A stretch of 59,420 bases of DNA from Chloroflexota bacterium. GTDB lineage: Bacteria; Chloroflexota; Dehalococcoidia; UBA2979. The stretch spans positions 1-59,420 of the forward strand of contig VXTU01000140.1 in NCBI GenBank assembly GCA_009837285.1. The letters run 5' to 3'. Below, piece after piece: positions 6,440-55,264 of this stretch (its first letter is position 1; every line of letters starts with the position of its first letter). The notes under the pieces were generated by a model, which was not told the origin of the DNA, did no database searches, and worked only from the letters and a program-made list of their open reading frames with translations. Position numbers and translations under genes: made by a program.

Positions 6440-6867
6440 GGGTCTCCACCACCGCTTCGTGCGCGCTCGCCGCGCCGTCGGTCGATGAACTGCTGGAGTA
6501 GTAGCGCGGCCGCGATATCGTCTGCGGACTCACCGCGCGGCGCCCCTCGCTCGGCGGCCACGGACGTCAGGCGCTCGTCCTCGTACTCGATCGGCAAATC
6601 GAGCCGCGCGAGGCGGTCGCCAAGCTTTCGGGCGGCGCGCGCCGCCTCGCCCTCGATGCCTTCGAGCGTGCGCGGGAGGCCGATCACGATGCCCCCGATC
6701 TGCTCGCGGCGCACGATCGCTCGGATCGCCGGGAACGCCGCGGCCGCCGGGACGATCTCGATCGGGACCGCGACGCGCTCCTCGGGATCGCAGGCGGCCA
6801 GGCCCACGCGGACGCTGCCCGGGTCCACGCCGAGCCAGCGCATGGCCTCGTCGCCGCGCTCACTCAT
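6436..6867 (-). CDS. ruvX: Holliday junction resolvase-like RuvX (YqgF)
   Basis: WLGVDPGSVRVGLA and IVIGLPRTLEG are present. The start is ATG 6867 (MSERGDEAMRWLG) or ATG 6843. Upstream track residues are low-complexity. Confidence 0.85.
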   Translation of the reverse strand: MSERGDEAMRWLGVDPGSVRVGLAACDPEERVAVPIEIVPAAAAFPAIRAIVRREQIGGIVIGLPRTLEGIEGEAARAARKLGDRLARLDLPIEYEDERLTSVAAERGAPRGESADDIAAALLLQQFIDRRRGERARSGGGDP

Positions 6868-8614
6868 CCCCGGTGTCCTCGCCCTCTGTGTCTTCTTCGT
6901 CGTCCGGGAGTCCGGCGATCTCGGCGGCGAGGTCCTCCTCGCTGAGGAACACGACCGAGATGCGGTCCTCGCGCTGCGGCATCCGCACGGCGGGGAGCCA
7001 CGTGGGGTGGACGCGGATGAGCGGTTCGACGTCGAGCTCGAGTTGCCCACGCAGCCGCTCCGCCGCCGTCGCCGGCGCGACGCCGGTGAGGAGGCCTCGC
7101 AGCGTCGTGGGGTCGAACAACTCGGTCGCGAGCCCGGTCGCGGTCAGCGTGGCCACCAGCCGGCTGCCGTCGAACGTCGGATCATCAGCCACCATCTCGG
7201 CGCTGCCCGGGATGAGCGCCATGCCGTCCGGCAATACGCTCACGAGGATTTGCTCCGCGGCGCGCTCGGCGGCGGCGTCGGGCAGGACGACCGCGGAGAC
7301 GATGGCCGTGTACTCCATCAGGAACGTTTCGGCCGGCTCACCTATCTCCACCAGGGGTTCCTGGCTCAAGATGGCGACGGTCACGCTCTCCTGAAACACC
7401 GTCCCATCCTCAATGATCCGTTCGAGCGCACGCGTACCGGCCCGTCGTAGCACGTCCTCGGCGATCCCGCTCACGCGCACCCTGTCGTCGGCAGCCGCGG
7501 CCGGCACCTCGATGTCCGCACCCCCCTCGGCGGCGACCGGGTTGGTGACAGCCAGCGTGGTCGGGAAGCCGATCATGAACCGCAGCGTGCTGGCCTCGAC
7601 GTTGCCGACGGTCCCGGGCTGGATGGCCGTGGCCCCGATGTACGCCGTCTCGCCGGCGGGGACCGTCACAGCCTCGTCGGTGGTGAACGTGAGCTCGTCG
7701 GGGTCCTCGACGGCCGTGCCGACAGGCAGCCGCACGTCGGCCGCGCCGCTGTTGGTGAACTCCAACTCAACGGTCGCCGGCAGGTCGCCGACGCTGGTGG
7801 TACCCGTCGTGACCGTCGACGCCACCGCCACGATCGTCTCACTGACCGAGGTCGCCCCCACGACGCCCTCGGCAATGTTGGTCTCGCCGACGGGGCTGAT
7901 GTGGACCCGCACGGACGTCGTGAGCGGCTCGCCCGGCGGCGCGATGAAGATGTCCGCCGAGGGCACGTAGTACGCGATGGCGCCGAACGCGAGGATGGGG
8001 ATGGCCGCGAATGCGGCCAGGCGCAGCAACGGCGTCAGCGGCGGCGGACGCAGCGTCAGCTCGCGCGGCCCGAGCGGGATGCGCAGCGTGGGCATGTCGC
8101 GCAGGCCGGTCGACGTGCGTGCGGCCCGGAGGCCCGCGTTCAGTGCGTGCTGGCGGACATCGCGCCGGCTCGCCAGCACGTGCACGGTGAGGCCGCGCTG
8201 CCGCGCGTAGGCCGCGATGCGCGGCCACGCCATCGCCTCGCGCAGCCCGCGCGCCCGGCGCGGCACCACCAGCAGCACCTCCACCTCGCTCGCGGTGTCG
8301 ATGCGGCCGATGATCGAGCTGGCGTCGTCCTCGCGGCGTGCGACGACCGTGGCCGCGCCCGCCATGTACGGCACGCTGCGCGGGACGTTGCGAGGCCGCC
8401 TGCGTCGTCGGGTCCTGGGCGGCGCGGCCGCCTCGCCTCGACGCGAGGCGCGCCAGTCCGCGACGAACTGCCTCCACTCGTCGCGCAGGCGGCCCGGTAT
8501 CTCGCGTGCCGACGCAGCCCAGCGGTCGAGCAACGAGCCCCCGTCGGTCCTGCCGGGGCGGGTGTCCGAGGGTTCGGATTCGCGCGCGCTGTCGTCCGGT
8601 TCGTGCGATGTCAC
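6860..8614 (-). CDS. Membrane-anchored protein with a baseplate J (gp47)-like C-terminal region; function unknown
   Basis: A 584-aa ORF. It has an Arg-rich cytoplasmic N-terminus and one TM segment (LLRLAAFAAIPILAFGAIAYYV). The extracytoplasmic part contains AGETAYIGATAIQPGTVGNVEASTL...LAVTNPVAAEGGAD, which resembles the conserved motif pair of baseplate J family proteins. Recognition-based only. Confidence 0.45.
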   Translation of the reverse strand: MTSHEPDDSARESEPSDTRPGRTDGGSLLDRWAASAREIPGRLRDEWRQFVADWRASRRGEAAAPPRTRRRRRPRNVPRSVPYMAGAATVVARREDDASSIIGRIDTASEVEVLLVVPRRARGLREAMAWPRIAAYARQRGLTVHVLASRRDVRQHALNAGLRAARTSTGLRDMPTLRIPLGPRELTLRPPPLTPLLRLAAFAAIPILAFGAIAYYVPSADIFIAPPGEPLTTSVRVHISPVGETNIAEGVVGATSVSETIVAVASTVTTGTTSVGDLPATVELEFTNSGAADVRLPVGTAVEDPDELTFTTDEAVTVPAGETAYIGATAIQPGTVGNVEASTLRFMIGFPTTLAVTNPVAAEGGADIEVPAAAADDRVRVSGIAEDVLRRAGTRALERIIEDGTVFQESVTVAILSQEPLVEIGEPAETFLMEYTAIVSAVVLPDAAAERAAEQILVSVLPDGMALIPGSAEMVADDPTFDGSRLVATLTATGLATELFDPTTLRGLLTGVAPATAAERLRGQLELDVEPLIRVHPTWLPAVRMPQREDRISVVFLSEEDLAAEIAGLPDDEEDTEGEDTGDE

Positions 8615-8620
8615 TGCCGG

Positions 8621-25742: not shown

Positions 25743-26458
25743 GGCGGCTCTGGCTCCTCTGGGGCAGGCTGTTCTACGGCTTCAGCCGCATCGCGCTGCC
25801 GCTCGCGCTGCGCCTCGCCGGCAGCCTCAAGATTGAGCACGCCGACCGCGTCCCCCTCGATGGCGGGGTCGTGATCGTCGCGAACCACGCGGCGCTGGTC
25901 GATCCGATCCTCGTCTGCGCCGCCGCTCCCCGACGACTGCGCCCCATCGCGAAGCGCGAGCTGTTCGAGACGCCGCTCATCGGGTGGACCGTGTGGCTCT
26001 ATGGCGCATTCCCCGTCCGCCGCCACTCCGGAGACCTTGGCGCGCTCCGGGCCGGGCGCAACCACCTCCGGGCCGGCCGGGCCGTGCTCGTGCACCCCGA
26101 GGGGACGAGGTCGCCTGACGGTCGGCTGACGCCGGGGCTGCCGGGCTCGGCCGTGATGGCGCTGCTCGGCGGCGCGCCGATCGTCCCGTGCGCGGTCACC
26201 GGCACCTCACCCATCAAGGGGCCTCGATCGATCCTCCGCGCGCTGATGACGCGCAGCCTGTCGATCCGCGTCGTCTTCGGCGAGCCCTTCGATCTCGACG
26301 AGGGCCGACCCACGGCCGAGCGTGCCGAGGTCGCGACAGACCTGATCATGCGGCGCATCGCCGAGCTCATGCCGGAGGAGTATCGAGGCGCCTACGGACC
26401 GGACTCCGAGGGCCAGGTCGTCGTCGCCCGCCACCGCGACGACGACGCCCGCGAGTAG
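25739..26458 (+). CDS. plsC: 1-acyl-sn-glycerol-3-phosphate acyltransferase
   Basis: The HX4D motif NHAALVDP and HPEGTRS are present. The GTG start overlaps the cmk stop (GTGA). Confidence 0.88.
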   Translation: MRRLWLLWGRLFYGFSRIALPLALRLAGSLKIEHADRVPLDGGVVIVANHAALVDPILVCAAAPRRLRPIAKRELFETPLIGWTVWLYGAFPVRRHSGDLGALRAGRNHLRAGRAVLVHPEGTRSPDGRLTPGLPGSAVMALLGGAPIVPCAVTGTSPIKGPRSILRALMTRSLSIRVVFGEPFDLDEGRPTAERAEVATDLIMRRIAELMPEEYRGAYGPDSEGQVVVARHRDDDARE

Positions 26459-26545
26459 CCGCCGGGCCGCCCCCGTGCGCTAGCCATCGCTCGGGTAGCC
26501 GCGCTACGCTGGGTGTCGGCGGGGCCGAAGACGGGGACTGCGCGC

Positions 26546-28399
<1,854 letters not shown>

Positions 28400-28418
28400 C
28401 CGTCGTCAACCCATCTGC

Positions 28419-28427
28419 TGCTACAGT
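28419..28427 (+). promoter_or_regulatory. Candidate extended -10 (TGCTACAGT) for the DUF262/DUF1524 gene
   Basis: Read directly in the 67-nt glmS-downstream spacer, 40 nt before ATG 28467. GGAAGG at 28455..28460 could serve as the Shine-Dalgarno sequence. Confidence 0.3.
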
Positions 28428-28466
28428 GTCGCGCGACTCAGTCCGTTGTTGGTGGAAGGCTCCCTC

Positions 28467-30320
28467 ATGAGTATCACGGCTTATGGGATCGAAAAGGAAG
28501 CGCTCGAAGACTTGCTTCGTGAAGCGCACAACGGCAGCTCACAACTGCCCGATTTCCAACGCGGCTGGGTCTGGGACGATGACCATGTACGCAGCCTCCT
28601 AGCGAGCATCTCGTTGGGCTATCCAATCGGCGCTGTCATGATGCTCAGGACGGGCGGCGATGGGCTGCGTTTCAAACAGCGAGCCATCGAGGGCGCTGCG
28701 GAGACGGCTACTGGCACAGCCGATCGCTTGATCCTCGACGGTCAGCAGCGGCTGACATCGCTCTTTCAGTCCCTGCAGTTGAACCGGCCCGTACTCACTC
28801 GCGACCAGAGAGGGCGTGAGATCGAACGCTGGTACTACATCGACATGCAGCAGGCGCTCGATCCCCTCGGTGACCGCGAGGAGGCAGTCGTCTCGCTGCC
28901 CGCCGACCGGCAGATCAGGCGTTTCGGTCGTGATGTCATCGAAGACTACTCGACGCCCGAGCGCGAGTACGAGTCAATGCTCTTCCCGCTCAGCAAAGCG
29001 TTTGACTCGCGCCGGTGGCGCGTGGGCTTCGAGCGCTTCTGGGAGTACAACGAGGAGAAAATCGAACTCTGGAACGAGTTTGATGAGCAGATCGTGACGC
29101 GGTTCGAGCAGTACCAGGTACCAGTAATCGAACTCGGAAAGGACACTCCGAAAGAAGCTGTCTGCCAGGTCTTCGAAAAGGTAAACACCGGCGGCGTCAC
29201 CCTCACCGTGTTCGAGTTGCTCACCGCTACCTACGCTGCTGACGATTTCCAACTGCGGCCGGACTGGGAGGCGCGAGAACGGGAGATTCATCAGCACTCG
29301 ATCCTCGCAGGCGTCTCAAACACAGACTTCCTGCAGGCGGTGACGCTCTTGGCGACGATGGAGCGCCGTGAGGCAGCCCTGGCTGGTGGAACGGACGAGG
29401 ACCGCGCGCCCGGAGTGGGATGCAAGCGGGCCGACATGTTGCGCCTGGAACTCTCCGAGTACCGGCGCTGGGCGAACCCGCTCGTGGAAGGGTTCAAGGT
29501 GGCGGCGAGATTCCTGCATGGGCAGCATCTCTACGACGCCAAGTTCTTGCCCTACGGGAGTCAATTGGTGCCGCTCGCCGCGATCCTCACGACCGTTGGG
29601 CGCGACTGGGAGCCACACGCCGCACGGGAGAAGCTGGCGCAATGGTACTGGTGCGGCGTGCTCGGCGAGTTGTACGGCGGATCCACTGAGACCCGCTTCG
29701 CCCGTGATCTTCCAGAGGTGGTGGACTGGATTCGTAACGAGGGCCCAGAGCCCACCACCGTCTACGACGCTGAGTTCGCCGAAGCGCGGCTACTTACACT
29801 TCGGACGCGGAACAGCGCCGCCTACAAGGGCATCTACGCGCTGCTGTTGCGCGAAGGCGCGTGCGACTGGATGACAGGCGAGGAAGCAACAGTACAAACA
29901 TACTTCGACGAACGGATCGACATCCACCACATCTTCCCACAGAAGTGGTGCGGCGAGAATGAAGTTGAGCCCGCTCGCTGCGACTCCATCGTCAACAAGA
30001 CGCCACTTACCGCGGCAACTAACCGGAGCATCGGAGGGGATGCCCCGCGCGAGTACCTCGACCGAATCGTGACCAAGAAACAGGTTCCACACGACGATCT
30101 GGACCGGTTCCTCCGTTCACATCTGATCGATCCCACCGGGCTGTACGCCGACGACTTTGAGGGGTTCTTCGCCACCCGCCGGGCGGCCCTGCTCGAGGCC
30201 ATCCGAAAGGCGATGGGCAAGCAGACAGCCGCAGACACTGTCGAAGATGCCGAAGAGGTGCCCGCGCAGTACGAGCTCGTGCACGGCGACAGCCTCGTAT
30301 CTGAGGATCTTGCCGAGTAG
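28467..30320 (+). CDS. DUF262 + DUF1524 two-domain protein (GmrSD/BrxU/SspE-like putative type IV, modification-dependent nuclease)
   Basis: The N-terminal domain carries LPDFQRGWVW, LILDGQQRLTSL and FEKVNTGGVTLTVFELL (DUF262 ParB-like NTPase motifs). The C-terminal domain carries IDIHHIFPQKW and NKTPLTAATNRSIG (DUF1524 His-Me finger). G+C is clearly lower than in the flanking genes. Confidence 0.8.
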   Translation: MSITAYGIEKEALEDLLREAHNGSSQLPDFQRGWVWDDDHVRSLLASISLGYPIGAVMMLRTGGDGLRFKQRAIEGAAETATGTADRLILDGQQRLTSLFQSLQLNRPVLTRDQRGREIERWYYIDMQQALDPLGDREEAVVSLPADRQIRRFGRDVIEDYSTPEREYESMLFPLSKAFDSRRWRVGFERFWEYNEEKIELWNEFDEQIVTRFEQYQVPVIELGKDTPKEAVCQVFEKVNTGGVTLTVFELLTATYAADDFQLRPDWEAREREIHQHSILAGVSNTDFLQAVTLLATMERREAALAGGTDEDRAPGVGCKRADMLRLELSEYRRWANPLVEGFKVAARFLHGQHLYDAKFLPYGSQLVPLAAILTTVGRDWEPHAAREKLAQWYWCGVLGELYGGSTETRFARDLPEVVDWIRNEGPEPTTVYDAEFAEARLLTLRTRNSAAYKGIYALLLREGACDWMTGEEATVQTYFDERIDIHHIFPQKWCGENEVEPARCDSIVNKTPLTAATNRSIGGDAPREYLDRIVTKKQVPHDDLDRFLRSHLIDPTGLYADDFEGFFATRRAALLEAIRKAMGKQTAADTVEDAEEVPAQYELVHGDSLVSEDLAE

Positions 30321-30350
30321 CTCATCCGCCCGGGTGCGGGGGCGTGGCGC

Positions 30351-31946
30351 GTGACGGGCCCCGATCTGACGTTCGCGAACTGGCTGCTCGCGGCCGTGCC
30401 GGTCGCGTTGCTGATGGTCGCCATCTTCTTCGCGGGGTGGAGTGCGCCGAGGGCGGGCGCGACTGCGTGGGCGCTCGCCCTCGGGTTGGCTTTCTTCGTC
30501 TTCGGCGCTGCGAGCGACCACGTCGCGATCGCCAGCGCCAAGGGACTGAGCCTCGCCGTCTTCGTGCTCACGATCGTCTGGACGTCCGTCTACATGTTCA
30601 ACCTCGTCGACCGCCTCGACGGCATCGACGCCATCGGGCGGGCGATGGCGAGGCTGTCGGAGGACCGGCTGGCGCAGGCCCTGCTCATCGGGTGGGGGTT
30701 CGCGAGTTTCGTCCAGGGCGTGACGGGCTTCGGCGTCCCTATTGCCGTGGCCGCGCCGGTGCTGATCATGCTCGGCTTCTCGCCCGCGCGGGCGGCCGGC
30801 ATGGCGCTGGTCGGTCACGGCTGGGCCGTGACCTTCGGCTCCATGGGCTCCTCGTACTACACGATCCAGCTCGTCACGGGCATCGAGGGCCACGTCATCG
30901 CTCCGCACATGGCCCTGCTGTTCGCGCCGGTCATCATCGCGAGCGGCGCGCTGGTCGCGCACATCTACGGCGGGTTCGGGGCCGTGCGACGCAGCCTGCC
31001 GCTCGTCATCGTCGCCGGCTCGGTGATGGCCGCGGGGATGTACGCCCTCGCCGAGGTCGACGCGCCGCAGATCGCGTCGAGCGTGCCGGCAATCCTCGGT
31101 ATGGCGACGATGGCGCTGCTGGCCCGCACGCGCCTGCTGGTGAGCGAGCAGGGCCGCGTGGTCCCCGCCGTGCCCGAGGAAGCCGAGGGCGCGAACCCGA
31201 TGCCGTTCTGGCTCGCGTTCCTGCCATACACGTTGCTGATCTCGCTCAGCGTGGTCGCGCAGATCGGCCCCATCAAGGAGGCGTCGTCGGGCCTGCGGTG
31301 GGCGCTCGACTACCCGGGCTTCGTGACCGGCGAGGGTTTCGTGGTGGCCGCCGTCAGCGACTACGCGCCGATCCGGCTCCTCAACCACCCCGCGCCGCTC
31401 ATCGTGATCTCGCTGATCATCAGTACGGCGCTCTACGTCGCAACCTCGCGGTGGCGGCGCGGCGTGGCGGCCGAGGCGCTCCGGCTGACGTACTCGCAGT
31501 GCCTCGCGACGAGCATCGGGGTTGCGACCATGGCCATGATGGCCGTCGTCATGGCCGACTCCGGCATGACGGTGCTGCTCGCCCGCGGGCTGGCCGACGC
31601 GTCCGGGCCGGTGTTCCCGGTGGTGTCGCCGTTCATCGGGATGCTGGGCGCGTTCATGAGCGGCAGCAACACCAACTCGAACGTCATGTTCGGCCTGCTG
31701 CAGCTCGAGACCGCGCGGGCGCTCGACATCGGGCCTGTGACGATCTCGAGCATCCAGTCGGTCGGCGCCTCGGTCGGCAGCGCGATGGCGCCGGCGAAGG
31801 TGCTGGTCGGCGCGGCAGTCGTCGGGTTGTCGGGCAGCGAGCGCGACATCTTCCGTATCGTCACGCCGTACATCTTGCTGCTCGTGCTGCTCGCCGGAAT
31901 CGAGGCGTGGATCGTGGTCGAGCTGCTCACCGGACTGTCGAGGTAG
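30351..31946 (+). CDS. lctP: L-lactate/glycolate permease family transporter
   Basis: It is polytopic. LIGWGFASFVQGVTGFGVPIAVAAPVLIMLGFSPARAAG aligns with the LctP/LldP signature region ([20 protein letters not shown]...LGF.P..AAG). Confidence 0.8.
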   Translation: MTGPDLTFANWLLAAVPVALLMVAIFFAGWSAPRAGATAWALALGLAFFVFGAASDHVAIASAKGLSLAVFVLTIVWTSVYMFNLVDRLDGIDAIGRAMARLSEDRLAQALLIGWGFASFVQGVTGFGVPIAVAAPVLIMLGFSPARAAGMALVGHGWAVTFGSMGSSYYTIQLVTGIEGHVIAPHMALLFAPVIIASGALVAHIYGGFGAVRRSLPLVIVAGSVMAAGMYALAEVDAPQIASSVPAILGMATMALLARTRLLVSEQGRVVPAVPEEAEGANPMPFWLAFLPYTLLISLSVVAQIGPIKEASSGLRWALDYPGFVTGEGFVVAAVSDYAPIRLLNHPAPLIVISLIISTALYVATSRWRRGVAAEALRLTYSQCLATSIGVATMAMMAVVMADSGMTVLLARGLADASGPVFPVVSPFIGMLGAFMSGSNTNSNVMFGLLQLETARALDIGPVTISSIQSVGASVGSAMAPAKVLVGAAVVGLSGSERDIFRIVTPYILLLVLLAGIEAWIVVELLTGLSR

Positions 31947-31948
31947 TC

Positions 31949-32119
31949 GTGCTGCCCGAGGAGACGCGTCGCCGGCTACAGCACGTGGCCCTCGCGGGCA
32001 TGGCCGCGAGCCTGCCGCTGCTCTACGCGGGCGCGGTGACGCTGGAGAGCGAGGTGGTCACGGTCGTGGGCCTCGGCGTGGCCGGGGTCCCCGCGGTCCT
32101 GGCGTGGGTGGCGTTCTAG
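31949..32119 (+). CDS. Possible small membrane protein (56 aa)
   Basis: The GTG lies 2 nt after the lctP stop. There are two hydrophobic stretches (LAGMAASLPLLYAGAV and VVGLGVAGVPAVLAWVAF). It may be spurious. Confidence 0.25.
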   Translation: MLPEETRRRLQHVALAGMAASLPLLYAGAVTLESEVVTVVGLGVAGVPAVLAWVAF

Positions 32120-32131
32120 CGAAGCACGCGC

Positions 32132-35100
32132 TCAGTCGCCGGTGGTAATCGCCACGATGGTGAGGACGGGCGCGAGCGGCGTGAGCAGCGCAAGCAGGGG
32201 GACGCCGTCCTCGGTGTCAGCGCCGACGGCGCCCTGGCGCCAGCGCCGCACCAGGCGGAGGCGGGAACGGTCCCACCACTCGCGCTGCAGCAGCACGGTC
32301 ATCCCGATGGCGAGCAGGACGAAGCCGGCGACCGCCAGCATCACCCAGTACGGCACGAGGTCCGTGTTGCGGTTCACCCAGAGGAAGCGCAGCGCGACCC
32401 CGGAGATCGTCGCGACGGCGGAGACCGCGAGCCAGCGCGTGTTGAGCACGATCGCAACGCCGAGCAGTGCGATCCCTTCGATGAGCAGCACGAGCCCCCA
32501 GCGCGCTCCGCCCGGCTCGAACCCCTGCTCGGCCTGCGGGAGCACGAGCAGCCCCGCAGCGACCACCTGCAGCACCTCGTGCCAGCCGATGTCGTCGCTC
32601 AGCCGCTCGCTGCTGCGCGTCATGAGTCCGACCAGCGCGACGTAGACCGCGGCCGGCAGCGTGTAGAACTGCACGTTGCCCGGCTCCTGCGTCGCGATCG
32701 CGAGCTCCAGCGAGACCATGACCAGCGCCGACGCCGGGAGCAGCGCCCAGCGCACGCCGAACCGGCGCCCCTCGAACACCACGGCCCCGGCCACCGGGAG
32801 GAGCAGCAGCGTCAGCGCCCGGAATTCGACCAGCGTCGGTGCGTCGACTCGCAGTGTGTCCACGCGTTCGCCCAGCGCCATCAGCGCCGCGACGGGGCCA
32901 AGTGCGAGGCCGCTCCAGGCGATGATCTGGATGGCGATGTCCGCGCCGTCGAGGCCAGGGCGTCGCCACCTCGTGAGCACCCCGAACACCACCGCGCCGA
33001 TGGCCGAGTAGGTGACCGCGAGCATCCACGGCGTCCAACCGAAGACCGGCCAAGACCCTGCGACCACAACCAGCACGAGCGCCCAGGCCGCGACCGCGGG
33101 CTCCCACCGTCGCAGCCGCCGTGCCTCGATGGCGATGAGTGCACCGAGCCCGAGCAGCAGCAGGACGAGGGCGCGGTACTCCGGCGTGGCGACGGACTCG
33201 ATGGCGGGATCGCGGATCAACGGGATCAGCGCCGCGTACGCGACGCCGATGGCCGTCAGCGCGGGAGCCCACGAGAGCACCTGCGCGGCGGTCGGCGTCT
33301 CTGGTTCGGGCGCCGACACCACCCGGTCGTAGCGCCGCATCGGAGCGAGCAGGCCGAACAGCACGGCCCCGCCCGCCGCGTACGACGCCGCGAGGATCCA
33401 CCACGCCCAGGCCTGCGCTTCCCAGAGCACGGCCATCGCGGCCATCCCGAGCGCGACCCCAACGACCACGAGGCTCCAGCGTCGCAGCACCACGAAGGCT
33501 CCAAGGACGTGCCCGGCGCCAAGTGCGAGCAGGGCAGCGTCGTGCCCCACGAACTCCTCGAGGGGGTGCAGCGACGCGCCGATGGCGAGGAGCGGGACGG
33601 GCAGGACCGCGAGGAGTAGCTGCGGCCGGGCGCGGGCGATCAAGACCATGACGCTGGAGCCGCCGACGGCCATCGCGGCCGGTACCCAGCCGGTGTCCGG
33701 CGGGCTCAGCCCCTCCGCGCGCTGCGCGAAGCCGACCGCGATGAGGACCGCGCCGAACGCAAGCCAGCCGAAGACCACCCGCTCCCGGTCGGGAGTCGCG
33801 CGCGTGTCCTCCTCGGGGTCTTCGCCGACTCCGGTCCACGTCGCGATGCCCTCGGTGGTGTTCGCCCACGCGATCGCGGCGAGGAGGGCGCCCGCGCCGA
33901 GGAACGCGGCCGCGGCAATCCAGCTGTCACCATCCAGATGCGTGTCGAGCAGCAGCAGGGGCCAGAGCCCGGCGCCCGCCGCGAGCAGGAGCGCGCCGAA
34001 TCCGAGTTGCGGGATCGATGTGATCCAGCTGGGCCTCGCGGTGAGGAGGAGCGCCCCGGTCACGAGCGGCGGGAAGCTGTACCACCCGGTTTCGGCGCCC
34101 CCGGCCCACAGCCCGGCGATGGCGGCAGCCGTTGCGAGCACGGCAGCGCCGAGGACGGCCATCGGCTCGCGCTGCGACGCGCCTCCCATCCCGACGACTG
34201 CCGTCAGCAGCAGCAACGTGACCGGCAGTTGCCAGTGATGCGCGTCCGCGAACGAGGCCGCGAGGAGCGCGAACAGCGTCGCGAGTGTGGCGATCACGGT
34301 CACTACGACGGCTACCGCGTTGCTCCATCGGCGCGCCGCCACGACAGCGTCCGGCCCGACGGCGGCGAACGCCAGCCACCATGCACCGCCCCACTCGATG
34401 GGAATCCCCATGGTGACCGCGAGCGAGCCCCATGCGCTCAGCACAGCGAGGCCCGCGGGAATGGCGTACAGCCGCCCGGCGCCCGTGCTGAAGAGCAGAG
34501 CGTAGAACCCTGCGCTGTAGACGGAGGCGATGAACCAGACGAGCGCACCCGACACCTCGCGGTCGCTGAGCACCGCGTCGTGGAGGAGCACGAAGTTGAG
34601 TGGCGTCATCAGGGCGCCGATGGCGAGGAACACCGGGCCCGCCTCGCGCACCCTCGGCCAGCGCTGGAGGAGTAGGCCGGCGGCCATGAATGCGACGGTG
34701 TAGGCCGCGAGGATCGCGACGCGCCACCCGCCGCCGAGCGCCTCGTCCTGACTCGACACGAAGATCAGCGCGGAGATGACGAGCAGGAACGCGCCCACAT
34801 AGAGCAGTACGTCGGCCTGCCGTCGCGCTGCCCACTCGCCGACCGTCCCCGCGGAGGCCGAGACCGGGGGGCGTCGCCTGGCGGGCGGAACGCGAGGAGC
34901 CGCGGCCGCAGTGGCCGCGGGTTGCGGCCCGGTCGTCGAAGGTTGCTGTGCCGGGGCAGCCGACGGCTCGCCCGCCGGCGCGAGAAGCGCGGCGCGGCGC
35001 GCCTCGTAGTGCTCTCGCAGTCGTCGCGCCGAGGCGTTGTCGATCAGGCCGTCGAGGCGCCATCCCTCGATGGCGTTGAGCAGCGTCGCTATCGACTCCG

Positions 35101-38148: not shown

Positions 38149-38532
38149 TCAGTACGGAGCTTCGAGGTCCGGGAACATGGGGAAGTGGCGCACATTGCGC
38201 GTCCACAGCCGCGCAGCAAGATGCTCGGCCGTCGCGGCGATGACGTAGTCGACCGGATCGATGCCCGGATGCGAGCGGAGATACCGGTTGGCCAGGACAC
38301 CGGCGCGCTCGGCGAGGTCGGTATCGACCTCGATCCAGTCGAGGCTGTCGAGCAGCCGGCGCGTGGCGGCCTCTTCGTGCGCGCGCATGCCGGCCAGTAC
38401 CTCGACCCGCGTGAGCACGGAAGCGGCGAGACGTTCGCCGGTGGCCGCCGCGTCGCGCAGCGCGTGGCGGGCCGCTTCGTCGCCCCGCAGGTGGTCGATC
38501 AGCACGGAGGTGTCGACGACGATCGCCATCAC
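38149..38532 (-). CDS. vapC: PIN-domain toxin VapC
   Basis: IVVDTSVLIDHL (first acidic residue), a mid-protein E, and IAATAEHLAARLWTRNVRHF are typical of a PIN domain. The start overlaps the stop of the upstream antitoxin. Confidence 0.88.
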   Translation of the reverse strand: MMAIVVDTSVLIDHLRGDEAARHALRDAAATGERLAASVLTRVEVLAGMRAHEEAATRRLLDSLDWIEVDTDLAERAGVLANRYLRSHPGIDPVDYVIAATAEHLAARLWTRNVRHFPMFPDLEAPY

Positions 38533-38780
38533 TCTGGCAGCCGCCGCGACATGCCACGACGAAGCTCGTCGACGTAGCTCGCGCCGTCGAAGTCGCGGTC
38601 ACCCCATGAGGCGAAACTCGCGTCGAGGGCGCTCCGCATCTCGGCGTCGGAAGCAGTTCCGTAGCTCCGATCGAGCGCGCGCCGTACGAGTTCGGCGAGG
38701 CCGAGGCCGGAGCGCCGGGACTCCTCGCGCAGTCGCGCGTACTGCTGATCGGTCAACGTGATCTGCGTGCGGTGACTCAT
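38529..38780 (-). CDS. vapB: Ribbon-helix-helix (CopG-like) antitoxin VapB
   Basis: MSHRTQITLTDQQYARLREESRRSGLGLAELVRRAL is an RHH N-terminus. The gene sits directly upstream of the PIN gene. Confidence 0.85.
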   Translation of the reverse strand: MSHRTQITLTDQQYARLREESRRSGLGLAELVRRALDRSYGTASDAEMRSALDASFASWGDRDFDGASYVDELRRGMSRRLPE

Positions 38781-53655: not shown

Positions 53656-53731
53656 TGGTGCCGAGGGGCAGAGTCGAACTGCCGACACCACGATTTTCAG
53701 TCGTGTGCTCTACCAACTGAGCTACCTCGGC
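53656..53731 (-). tRNA. tRNA-Phe (anticodon GAA) with an encoded CCA
   Basis: The cloverleaf was folded by hand. The acceptor stem is GCCGAGG/CCTCGGC and the D stem is GCTC/GAGC. The anticodon stem is CACGA/TCGTG with loop CTGAAAA. The T stem is GGCAG/CTGCC with loop TTCGACT. The discriminator is A, followed by CCA. Total length is 76 nt. Confidence 0.95.
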
Positions 53732-53854: not shown

Positions 53855-54511
53855 ATGGTGTGGTTCTACCAGAAGCAGATCGAGATGCCCTCGCCCGAGG
53901 AGGCATTGCGAGGCCGCGAGGTGCGGATCCCGGTGCCGGAGATGCACTTCGTCAACGGCAACCCCCTCGAGCCGCCCTTCCCGGAGGGGCTGGAGATGGC
54001 CATGTTCGGCATGGGCTGCTTCTGGGGCGCCGAGCGCGTCTTCTGGCAGGCGCCGGGCGTCTACACCACGGCCGTCGGCTACGCGGCCGGCTACACGCCG
54101 AACCCGACGTACGAGGAGGTCTGTAGCGGCCGCACGGGCCATAACGAGGTCGTGCTCGCCGTGTGCGACCCCTCGGTCATCAGCTACGACGAGATCCTGA
54201 AGCTGTTCTGGGAGAACCACGACCCCACGCAGGGGATGCGCCAGGGCAACGACGTCGGCACGCAGTACCGCTCCGGCATCTACTGCTACTCGCCGGAGCA
54301 GTTCAAGGCAGCCGAGCGCTCGCGCGACATGTTCCAGGAGGTGCTGAGCGCCCACCGCTACGGCCCGATTACCACGGAGATCATCGACGCGCCGGAGTTC
54401 TACTACGCCGAGGACTACCACCAGCAGTACCTGGCGAAGGTGCCGAACGGCTACTGCGGCCTCGGCGGCACCGGGCTGAGCTGTCCCGTCGGCGTGGCCG
54501 AGATGGGGTAG
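53855..54511 (+). CDS. msrA: Peptide methionine (S)-sulfoxide reductase
   Basis: The active site [22 protein letters not shown] and the C-terminal YCGLGGTG are present. Confidence 0.95.
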
Positions 54512-54535
54512 CGCCTCGTCCACGCCCTCGCGCCC

Positions 54536-54570
54536 TGCTAGAATGCACGCAGTGATTGCAATGCAATCAC
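54536..54570 (+). promoter_or_regulatory. Extended -10 (TGCTAGAAT) followed by a perfect 9-bp inverted repeat GTGATTGCA-A-TGCAATCAC (candidate promoter and operator of the second vapBC module)
   Basis: Read directly. TGCTAGAAT is at 54536..54544 and the palindrome at 54552..54570. GAGGAGGG follows and then GTG 54588. Confidence 0.5.
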
Positions 54571-54587
54571 GTACGTGAGGAGGGCGC

Positions 54588-54833
54588 GTGGCCAGCATCA
54601 CCATCCGCAACCTCGACGATGAGGTGAAGCAGCGGCTGCGCGTACGCGCCGCCGAGCATGGGCGATCTATGGAGCACGAAGCGCGCGAAATCCTCCGGGC
54701 TGCGCTCGCACAGACGCCCCAAACCGGAGAAGAGTTGTATCGCGCGATTCGCGCTCGGGTGGAGCCTATCGGTGGGATCGAACTCGAGCTGCCGCCACGT
54801 GAACCGATGCGCGAGCCGCCCACCTTCGACTAA
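54588..54833 (+). CDS. vapB: FitA/VapB-type antitoxin (Arc/RHH-like)
   Basis: MASITIRNLDDEVKQRLRVRAAEHGRSMEHEAREILRAAL is the typical FitA/StbC-like N-terminus. Confidence 0.85.
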   Translation: MASITIRNLDDEVKQRLRVRAAEHGRSMEHEAREILRAALAQTPQTGEELYRAIRARVEPIGGIELELPPREPMREPPTFD

Positions 54834-54844
54834 GCAGTCGCGGG

Positions 54845-55264
54845 ATGATCATCCTTGATACGAATGTCGTCTCGGACATTATCGGTCCCGCGCCCTCGCC
54901 GACTGTAGCCGCCTGGCTCGGCAGGCAGCCAGCGGACGACGTATTCGTGTCCGCAGTGACTGAAGCCGAGTTGCGGTATGGGGCAGAGATTCTCCCGGCG
55001 GGTCGGCGGCGAGACAGGCTGCTTTCCGAGATCGAAGACATCCTCGGCAGGGACTTCGCCGGCCGCATTCTCCCGTTCGGCTCCATCGCTGCCCAAGCGT
55101 ACGCGGCCATCGTCGCCGCGCGGAGGGCCGCCGGGCGCCCCATAACCCCGTTCGACGCACAGATCGCAGCGATCGCGCGCTCCCTCGGCGCGTCCGTAGC
55201 GACGCGTGACAGAGGAGGCTTCGAGGGGACCGGCGTCGACATCATCGACCCCTGGGGCGACTGA
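54845..55264 (+). CDS. vapC: PIN-domain toxin VapC/FitB type
   Basis: MIILDTNVVSD, AVTEAELRYG, PFD..AAQ and IAAIARSLGASVATRD are present. Confidence 0.9.
   Translation: MIILDTNVVSDIIGPAPSPTVAAWLGRQPADDVFVSAVTEAELRYGAEILPAGRRRDRLLSEIEDILGRDFAGRILPFGSIAAQAYAAIVAARRAAGRPITPFDAQIAAIARSLGASVATRDRGGFEGTGVDIIDPWGD

Follow-up and report, generated by a model that had tools for sequence, protein, structure and literature searches.

What is a gene of strikingly low G+C content doing between glmS and lctP, amid the core genes of a Chloroflexota chromosome, and what might its product do? The window, by which we mean the whole stretch of 59,420 nucleotides analysed here (contig VXTU01000140.1 of assembly GCA_009837285.1), carries in this gap one open reading frame (ORF) for a protein of 617 amino acids (aa), with a DUF262 domain at its N-terminus and a candidate HNH nuclease domain at its C-terminus. 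We favour the view, with a probability of roughly 70%, that the gene is a single-gene accessory cassette encoding a nucleoside triphosphate (NTP)-gated type IV restriction enzyme that acts against modified DNA in the manner of BrxU and GmrSD.

28467..30320, + strand: coding sequence of a GmrSD-family (BrxU-like) protein, 617 aa (ORF call, PF03235, homolog starts)

The ORF had been noticed in a preliminary description made from the letters of the window, and the frame was reproduced at 28467-30320 (+). A TTG at 28446 offers an alternative start; the ATG at 28467 is the start in all homologs and gives the 617-aa product, ending at 30320. The same description called the gene a low-GC islet. Its G+C content of 61.5% is the minimum among all 1854-nt windows of the 59-kb sequence; non-overlapping windows of this size average 71.7% (standard deviation 1.4%), which puts the gene at z = -7.0. 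The hand counts of G+C per 60-nt line given earlier (29, 30, 31 and 39 within the gene, 47 and 46 in the flanks) were all exact. At third codon positions the G+C content (GC3) is 75.9% in the DUF262-HNH gene, 93.8% in glmS and 95.3% in lctP, and by our reading of the ORF list it is at least 0.85 in all other ORFs of the window judged by composition to be real coding frames. The claimed enrichment of AAA, GAA and TTT agrees with the codon counts (5, 20 and 4 in the gene; 0, 4 and 0 in glmS; 0, 1 and 0 in lctP). Every peptide motif quoted in the description is found in the product: FQRGWVW at aa 30-36, DGQQRLTS at 91-98, FEKVNTGGVTL at 236-246, FELL at 249-252, DIHHIFPQ at 485-492 and a further C-terminal motif at 510-521. 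Across five alleles of the cassette dN/dS lies between 0.08 and 0.19. The gene is under purifying selection and is therefore functional.

What kind of protein is it? The parts on which the answer depends are these.

28503..29234, + strand: DUF262/GmrSD_N (ParB/Srx-like NTPase) domain, aa 13-256 (PF03235, E = 3e-31; BrxU alignment; conservation)
28737..28751, + strand: DGQQR motif, aa 91-95, predicted site of NTP gamma-phosphate positioning and hydrolysis (invariance; BrxU mutants)
29247..29876, + strand: alpha-helical linker or middle domain, about aa 261-470 (AlphaFold2 model mostly helical over aa 267-443)
29877..30056, + strand: predicted HNH/His-Me finger nuclease core, aa 471-530 (motif, profile and C-terminal model; Pfam match below threshold)
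29919-29942, + strand: D485-I-H487-H488-I-F-P491, nuclease motif
29994-29996, + strand: N510, nuclease motif
30021-30023, + strand: N519, nuclease motif

The N-terminal half is straightforward. The match to Pfam DUF262 is significant, and the domain family, DUF262/GmrSD, is a known one, as had been said. All 49 close homologs have the DGQQR motif unchanged, and in 150 distant representatives it is essentially invariant. Its surroundings, LILDGQQRLTS at aa 88-98, fit the (I/V)(I/V)DGQQRLT pattern of the GmrSD family (Machnicka 2015). A serine at position 47, aligned to S42 of BrxU, is also conserved. The middle region, helical in the AlphaFold2 model and collinear with BrxU in a full-length alignment, corresponds to the helical linker of the family, which covers 200-400 residues in GmrSD fusions (Machnicka 2015). 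The protein has an extra, variable insert relative to BrxU at about aa 131-215.

The C-terminal half needed more work. With a gathering cutoff of 23 bits, Pfam DUF1524/GmrSD_C (PF07510) reaches no more than 13.9-15 bits (E = 0.02-0.05); restricting the search to the C-terminal part does not lift it over the cutoff, and the HNH_4 match is likewise marginal and below threshold. Because the DUF1524 match is under the cutoff, the assignment was built on motif, profile and structure predictions. The earlier label of a DUF1524 His-Me finger thus fails as a Pfam call and stands as a predicted HNH domain, and four independent lines support a GmrD-type HNH domain at this position. The residues D485, H487, H488, P491, N510 and N519 are invariant in the 49 close homologs, and they are near-invariant in 150 representatives with identities down to 33%; DGQQR, D485, H487, H488, N510 and N519 are kept in 120-132 of about 140 aligned distant representatives. 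H488, N510 and N519 align with H475, N505 and N518/N519 of BrxU. The acidic first residue of the family signature (E/D)-H-N-N is H487 here, with D485 lying two residues upstream.

A profile of the family, built from the 49 homologs, has one significant match in the PDB, BrxU (7P9K, E = 3e-8), in three collinear segments, the third of which aligns DIHH(I/V)FP with VDHIYP and NKTP with NKLP of BrxU. A direct sequence search of the PDB gave BrxU at a marginal E = 0.067; significance needed the family profile. Structure prediction gave the same answer. With the full-length AlphaFold model, whose mean predicted local distance difference test score (pLDDT) is 66.5, BrxU chains are the only significant PDB fold matches (E = 1e-8, probability 1.0, about 650 aligned columns). 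Residues 421-617 modelled alone reach pLDDT 84-96 over the motif region, in a beta-beta-alpha arrangement, and a fold search with this model returned HNH/His-Me nucleases only: the HNH domain of Cas9 was best (E = 2.4e-3), followed by the C-terminal domain of BrxU (E = 3.8e-3, TMq 0.49-0.51), with Vvn and Gme-HNH among the others. These overlap with several templates used for modelling GmrD, which include Cas9 HNH (4OGE), Vvn (1OUP) and Gme-HNH (4H9D; Machnicka 2015). Sequence, profile and model thus agree that the protein is a predicted GmrSD-family enzyme, with BrxU, at about 15-19% identity, as its nearest characterised relative.

Models of known defence proteins point the same way. In PADLOC the best model that spans the entire DUF262 domain is HEC-05 (E = 7e-20), whose tested homolog shares 99.2% identity with BrxU (Payne et al. 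2024 preprint). HEC-06 models match at E of about 2e-4 over the N-terminus only, and no PADLOC model covers the 617-aa protein in full; an NCBIfam scan of the protein gave no match and no model. The PADLOC model for NsnA, which we take to be the DUF262 component of Menshen, scores E = 4.8e-15.

The same searches bear on the idea that the protein is an SspE-like effector, one that senses phosphorothioate (PT) on host DNA and nicks invading DNA. SspE shares the DUF262 plus HNH architecture, PADLOC SspE models match weakly within an N-terminal stretch of some 90 aa (aa 10-100, E = 1e-4 to 3.5e-3), and the SspE C-terminal domain is among the fold matches of the C-terminal model (E = 0.07). SspE is, however, missing from the full-length fold matches, where BrxU stands at E = 1e-8; the SspE models have about 770 positions against 617 aa; and neither SspABCD nor Dnd genes were found in the scanned ORFs of the window or among the called genes of the eleven genomic contexts examined. 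We consider an SspE-like effector highly improbable. The preliminary description had named GmrSD, BrxU and SspE together as the likeness: the first two are upheld by sequence, profile and fold, and SspE is the poorest fit of the three.

How widespread is such a protein, and in what company does it occur? An exhaustive search, counted as cluster representatives at 50% identity, gave 7761 at E <= 1e-3, 3678 at E <= 1e-10 and 960 at E <= 1e-30. The best 120 matches all reach 70% identity or more and measure 584-669 aa; 'DUF262 domain-containing protein' and 'hypothetical protein' are the only source names among them, and the proteins so named are from Actinomycetia and Chloroflexi metagenome-assembled genomes (MAGs). 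The subfamily reaches Chloroflexota, Actinomycetota, Proteobacteria, Cyanobacteria and Halobacterium. Full-length members with 42-48% identity sit on 58 plasmid records, 18 of them conjugative, in Sphingomonads, Rhodococcus, Paenarthrobacter, Nostoc, Burkholderia, Thermus and Halobacterium, and four phage records carry family members as well. Many members (P0133-P0196) are longer, 770-1100 aa, and carry C-terminal fusions, namely Schlafen/AlbA_2, DUF4357, DUF4268, DUF5655 and Ser/Thr protein kinase domains, besides a weak sub-threshold match to an OLD-type TOPRIM domain; the extensions of P0133, P0141 and P0142 have no Pfam match.

In the window the gene has no obvious partner. None of the main ORFs is a BREX, Ssp/Dnd, methyltransferase, integrase or transposase gene, as the preliminary description had stated, and no recurring partner was seen across the eleven contexts, in keeping with its view of a stand-alone gene. 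A homolog of 48% identity on a Sphingopyxis plasmid lies in a defence island (helix-turn-helix protein, DUF262, RelE-HigA, two methylases, DEAD helicase, AAA ATPase), one of 78% identity lies near an N6_N4 methylase and ResIII pair and HicAB, and a copy on a Rhodococcus plasmid has an integrase a few genes away. In four other chromosomal contexts the gene is alone, with no directly adjacent defence gene. Lone fused enzymes are the usual form of the GmrSD family (Machnicka 2015). A functional linkage between the DUF262 gene and lctP was considered and rejected, because family members elsewhere lack an lctP neighbour.

How did the gene come to lie where it does? Relatives were ENA assemblies reached by exact-protein look-ups, and their loci are denoted here by L numbers. 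The junction is made up as follows.

26546..28399, + strand: glmS (glutamine-fructose-6-phosphate aminotransferase), native left flank (syntenic gene of L001 with GATase_6/7 and SIS; GC3 0.94)
28400..30325, + strand: inserted cassette, about 1.93 kb, comprising a promoter-like block, a Shine-Dalgarno sequence, the DUF262-HNH gene and a few nt of 3' spacer (alignment of empty and occupied sites)
30351..31946, + strand: lctP (L-lactate permease), native right flank (PF02652 in syntenic loci; GC3 0.95)

On the left, occupied and empty sites are homologous as far as the glmS stop codon (TAG, 28397-28399), which bounds the insert. On the right the edge can be placed only roughly: the two kinds of site align again from some 25-30 nt before the start of lctP, at the element GGGGGCGT...GTGACGGG. 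The cassette as a whole has 61.9% G+C, compared with 71%. The permease itself is well identified, a 98% homolog being named 'L-lactate permease [Chloroflexota bacterium]'.

Five loci, the window included, have the gene at the glmS-lctP junction. The relatives' copies are 98% (L001), 85% (L169), 81% (L002) and 79% (L088) identical to the window protein, and identity among the glmS proteins of the carriers goes down to 77%. A neighbour-joining tree of 120 family members groups the glmS-linked copies in one clade that excludes copies from other contexts. With the permease as probe, two empty junctions were found, L174 and L175, in which glmS is followed directly by lctP across spacers of 109 and 157 bp; both share the cmk-plsC-glmS-lctP-PPDK synteny of the window. 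The nucleotide identity of glmS to that of the window is 93.0% for L001, 92.4% for L174, 88.9-89.8% for L002 and L169, 87.3% for L175 and 78.4% for L088. As L174 is as close as the nearest carrier, and not an outgroup, presence and absence are interleaved on the host backbone. The gene is accessory in this lineage. The comparison of this junction among relatives, as proposed earlier, thus shows the gene absent from L174 and L175; it is nonetheless not specific to one strain, being carried by five lineages as one clade. More distant collections were of no use for the empty-site test: the best glmS among GTDB species representatives (a Dehalococcoidia MAG) is 61% identical and the best in JGI metagenomes 51%. 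L005 (Dehalococcoidia UBA6627), the closest genome among the species representatives, shows no ORF of comparable length after glmS. In both empty-site contigs glmS was called as two ORFs (L174:5036-6891 and L175:5003-6843), probably from frameshift errors in low-coverage assemblies (L174 is at 11x), or the split may be real pseudogenisation.

Synonymous divergence (dS) tells a similar story, with the proviso that dS comparisons are imperfect between genes of very different codon bias. Between the window and L001 it is 0.12 in the cassette and 0.28-0.30 in the flanks; between the window and L169 or L002 it is 0.91-1.37 in the cassette and 0.37-0.47 in the flanks. This discordance suggests exchange of alleles by homologous recombination. 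In a direct comparison with L001:8001-9854 the cassette is 96.5% identical in nucleotides and the flanking glmS and lctP 91.5-93.0%, which suggests a transfer or sweep of the cassette after the two backbones diverged. The simplest reading of these alignments, which cover seven loci, would be a single founding insertion, followed by exchange of the cassette, in its divergent alleles, and of the null allele between related lineages through homologous recombination in glmS and lctP. The earlier claim that the segment is acquired is in this way upheld, by the empty junctions and the dS discordance, beyond composition. Differences between alleles are moderately enriched only at aa 181-210 and 526-617, and a hypervariable specificity module was rejected given so moderate an enrichment.

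These data also address whether the gene could be an old, vertically inherited housekeeping gene of DNA metabolism whose odd composition is intrinsic. Occupation of one junction in five lineages with such divergent glmS proteins, the monophyly of the glmS-linked copies, strong purifying selection, a G+C content near 62% in six different high-GC hosts and a neighbourhood of housekeeping genes would all suit such a gene. Empty junctions nested among the carriers would not, nor would dS values discordant with the flanks in both directions, homologs on conjugative plasmids, in phages and in defence islands, or the lack of an ORF of matching size after glmS in L005. Vertical housekeeping descent therefore appears very unlikely to us.

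Among the copies compared (window, L001, L002, L004, L085, L086, L087 and L088) the gene has 61-63% G+C and GC3 of 0.76-0.82 in six hosts of 70-73% G+C; the copy in L086, at 68.7%, is a partly ameliorated exception. As low G+C is common across hosts, the anomaly belongs to the gene pool, and the time of acquisition cannot be read from it alone. The low G+C persists although dS between alleles is about 1, and either continual re-import from a pool of lower G+C or something that holds GC3 down could be responsible.

The region 3' of glmS is a classical Tn7 target, and the gene, at a flank described earlier as a classical insertion hot spot (attTn7), might be cargo in the remnant of a Tn7-type insertion. 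It does lie directly 3' of glmS, and L175 has another defence-type gene of low GC3 on the other side of glmS. The junction has little else of such an element. Neither the main ORFs of the window nor the syntenic loci yielded a tns, transposase or integrase gene. Junction alignment and a repeat search revealed no target-site duplication, no terminal inverted repeats or end motifs, and no gene remnant in the empty spacers; the repeat search gave only chance-level imperfect matches inside coding sequence. The gene is set off by spacers of just 67 and 30 bp, homology with the empty sites breaks off at the glmS stop and not about 25 bp downstream of it, the ancestral spacer was mostly replaced rather than split, and other family members occupy unrelated sites. 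The right junction is identical in four carriers, and L169 retains more of the old spacer. The attTn7 idea is accordingly not supported, and we consider a Tn7 remnant extremely doubtful.

Several further observations concern this neighbourhood. In L088 a second DUF262-HNH paralog (P0054, 669 aa, L088:11574-13583, +) follows lctP directly, so that the permease is bracketed by two copies. P0054 aligns with 94% of the window protein at 79% identity, branches beside the glmS-linked clade and has the same upstream block, CTGCTACAGT...TCGCGCG, as the glmS-linked copies. On the other side of glmS, the plsC-glmS spacer is only 87 bp in the window, and in L175 it holds a different gene (L175:2329-4794, -, 67.5% G+C, GC3 0.77) for an 821-aa ABC/SMC-type ATPase with matches to MADS mad3 (9e-22), Lamassu LmuB, PARIS AriA and GajA; both flanks of glmS therefore vary in this lineage. 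L169 has between plsC and glmS a 2.5-kb stretch with no called gene (L169:1512-4087, 68.5% G+C, fragmentary ORFs); it has no Pfam match and no similarity to the L175 ATPase, and may be a degraded or frameshifted insert.

Does the cassette bring its own expression signals? Three features of the spacers are relevant.

28418..28434, + strand: conserved 17-nt block CTG-N-TACAGT-N-TCGCGC, extended -10-like, with TGn and TACAGT at 28422-28427 (conservation)
28454..28459, + strand: Shine-Dalgarno-like GGAAGG, 7 nt before the ATG (read off the sequence)
30321..30350, + strand: spacer before lctP, 30 nt, with the G-rich GGGGGCGT element common to the empty sites

The block is invariant in all five glmS-linked loci and also precedes the second paralog of L088, though the rest of that spacer is unrelated. 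With its TGnTACAGT placed some 40 nt before the ATG, it looks like an extended -10 promoter. A scan of the upstream region with the sigma-70 two-hexamer consensus found no promoter site, and because of this the promoter reading is based on conservation alone. At the Shine-Dalgarno position the relatives keep purine-rich sequences (GGAAGG, GAGGG or GAGAG). Of the promoter and Shine-Dalgarno sequence put forward in the preliminary description, both TGCTACAGT (28419-28427) and GGAAGG are present, and the block is conserved; as a sigma-70 promoter the site failed the scan. A LexA-type operator was also considered for the TACAGT block and dropped, since an extended -10 fits better. Downstream, the region of the G-rich element is the probable ribosome-binding region of lctP. 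No + strand terminator was found between glmS, the DUF262-HNH gene and lctP, so read-through from the gene into lctP is likely.

How might the protein work? In BrxU, binding of nucleotide at the DUF262 site dissociates an intertwined dimer, and cleavage needs hydrolysis through the QR of DGQQR followed by re-association (Picton 2021). The mutants Q101A and R102A underlie the role assigned to this motif, and mutations in D474, H475 or DGQQR abolish defence (Picton 2021). Of these residues, only the acidic one lacks a conserved counterpart here. By analogy, the ParB/Srx-like DUF262 domain would bind and hydrolyse NTP through DGQQR and so gate a conformational or oligomeric cycle, which the long helical linker would couple to a C-terminal HNH (beta-beta-alpha-metal) nuclease with H488 as the predicted general base and H487, N510 and N519 as supporting residues. 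This metal-dependent nuclease would cut incoming DNA with a base modification, most likely on cytosine, that host DNA does not carry. Known substrates of BrxU are DNAs with 5-methylcytosine (5mC), 5-hydroxymethylcytosine (5hmC), glucosyl-hmC and arabinosyl-modified cytosine. Phages or other mobile DNA would in this way be subject to type IV restriction. The gene would be expressed from its own extended -10-like promoter and need no partner gene, and the cassette in the glmS-lctP spacer would behave as a presence/absence allele, swapped by homologous recombination through the conserved flanks. The protein is, in short, probably a defence enzyme against modified phage DNA.

A number of points weigh against this interpretation, besides the limits already given for the dS values and for a recombination route drawn from seven loci. 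The target modification cannot be read from the sequence. No close homolog has a functional name, NCBIfam and full-length PADLOC models are absent, and the subfamily marked by D-x-H-H-x-F-P has neither a characterised member nor experimental evidence. On the structural side, the Pfam DUF1524 match is sub-threshold, the isolated C-terminal domain gives Foldseek E values of 2e-3 to 7e-3, and the full-length model is mediocre, with template modelling (TM) scores to BrxU of 0.36-0.40 beside its modest pLDDT. The catalytic dyad is H-H and not the (D/E)-H of the family, and RLFDS, a nucleotide-binding motif in BrxU, has become SLLAS. Finally, the top 120 members are unusually similar for a defence gene, and most close homologs lie amid housekeeping genes and not in defence islands.

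Some of these points would also suit the same fold with a different trigger, that is, an NTP-gated HNH nuclease whose action is independent of DNA modification, for instance an abortive-infection or anti-plasmid enzyme that answers to some other cue of infection, or a nickase. Modification dependence is carried over from BrxU and GmrSD only; SspE, with the same architecture, nicks rather than cuts and answers to another signal; DUF262 is paired with other effectors in Menshen, Dazbog and PD-T4-2; with an H-H dyad and no RLFDS, the subfamily is a distinct one; and some relatives have sensor-like fusions to AlbA_2 and protein kinase domains. Still, the sole significant full-length match by structure or profile is BrxU, a type IV enzyme, and a single polypeptide of DUF262, linker and HNH is the exact architecture of the characterised type IV enzymes. 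We regard a modification-independent nuclease as unlikely, and prefer the type IV reading. A more specific proposal, which we put forward only tentatively and with rather low expectation, is that the D-x-H-H-x-F-P subfamily is a distinct GmrSD branch, perhaps with a target other than cytosine adducts, and that the glmS-lctP junction is a fixed slot under balancing or frequency-dependent selection. Swapping of alleles under balancing selection would explain both the persistently low G+C and an allele divergence that exceeds that of the backbone.

Elsewhere the window is core chromosome, with genes for AroKB, AroC, MltG, AlaRS, GlmU, CorC, DprA, TopA, EF-P, exonuclease VII, cytidylate kinase, PlsC, GlmS, LctP, PPDK and DsbA, together with a dGTPase-like HD protein, DnaG, RpoD, MazG, UvrD/PcrA and tRNA-Phe; an Rfam scan of 26000-32500 returned nothing meaningful. 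Apart from the gene described here, the main ORFs are all housekeeping except one for a PIN-domain (VapC-like) protein of 149 aa between PPDK and DsbA (38152-38598, -; PF01850, E = 1e-13). A PIN gene is at the same position in L001 and L174, in the latter with a ribbon-helix-helix partner, and was not called there in L002 and L175; the position looks like another small variable slot, for toxin-antitoxin genes. Between MltG/YceG and AlaRS, a 586-aa ORF (6863-8620, -) has a match to Baseplate_J-like PF04865 at aa 281-373 (E = 3.8e-10), unexpected amid housekeeping genes. The sole tRNA of the window, tRNA-Phe (GAA), is at 53656-53731 (-), and the adjoining kilobase, 54001-55000, is a secondary G+C dip of 65.8%.

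What does the locus add? Single-gene GmrSD-type type IV enzymes are already well established (Eco94GmrSD, BrxU, HEC-06), and no new principle is involved; the population genetics of the locus are tidy but unsurprising for a defence gene. The subfamily, in turn, is very large and broad, is without a characterised member, and is captured only in part by Pfam, NCBIfam and PADLOC. If a single member were characterised biochemically, thousands of "DUF262 domain-containing proteins" could be annotated, and it would become clear whether the H-H dyad and the lost RLFDS alter cofactor use or substrate range. The locus is also a clean natural case, in an uncultured phylum, of a recombining defence allele that is present or absent between core genes, and its defined empty sites are useful for studies of defence-gene turnover outside model organisms.

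Among known systems the cassette compares as follows. A Tn7-like element at attTn7 is recognised by tns genes, end motifs, a 5-bp duplication and an insertion point some 25 bp beyond the glmS stop, none of which is seen here. SspE combines, like the window protein, a DUF262 NTPase bearing DGQQR with a DUF1524-type HNH domain, and there is weak similarity of C-terminal fold; it differs in that it nicks DNA when triggered by PT on host DNA, belongs with Ssp/Dnd partners that were not found in the window or the eleven contexts, is larger (models of about 770 positions), and matches in PADLOC weakly and in the N-terminus only. HEC-06, described as GmrSD-like, has DGQQR and an HNH motif, and its QR and EH mutants lose defence (Payne et al. 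2024 preprint). Its nuclease motif is EHICP in place of HHIFP, and its PADLOC match is likewise weak and N-terminal. Enzymes of Enterococcus and Vibrio cholerae, likened by their description only, are also DUF262/DUF1524 type IV restriction enzymes.

GmrSD proper (GmrS/GmrD of E. coli CT596; Eco94GmrSD) is closer. By the definition of the family, DUF262 with DGQQR, a linker and an HNH domain with two Asn (Machnicka 2015), the window protein resembles it, and a lone fused gene is usual. DUF4268 and DUF4357, which are carried by relatives of the window protein, are accessory domains of GmrSD homologs (Machnicka 2015). The differences are a C-terminal domain under the Pfam DUF1524 threshold and a His as the first residue of (E/D)-H-N-N. 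BrxU differs in sequence, with only some 15-19% identity, and in the variable insert of the window protein at about aa 131-215. It differs also at RLFDS, here SLLAS, and at DHIYP, here HHIFP (D474 to H487), with DGQQR and the serine kept. The window gene is not part of a BREX, Hma or type I restriction-modification system, and no BREX gene occurs in the eleven contexts. What the two share is a single polypeptide of similar length (587 against 617 aa), with an N-terminal DUF262 domain bearing DGQQR, a helical linker and a C-terminal HNH domain, matching collinearly over the full length, with the dimer-switch serine S42 kept as S47 and with N510 and N519 aligned to N505 and N518/N519.

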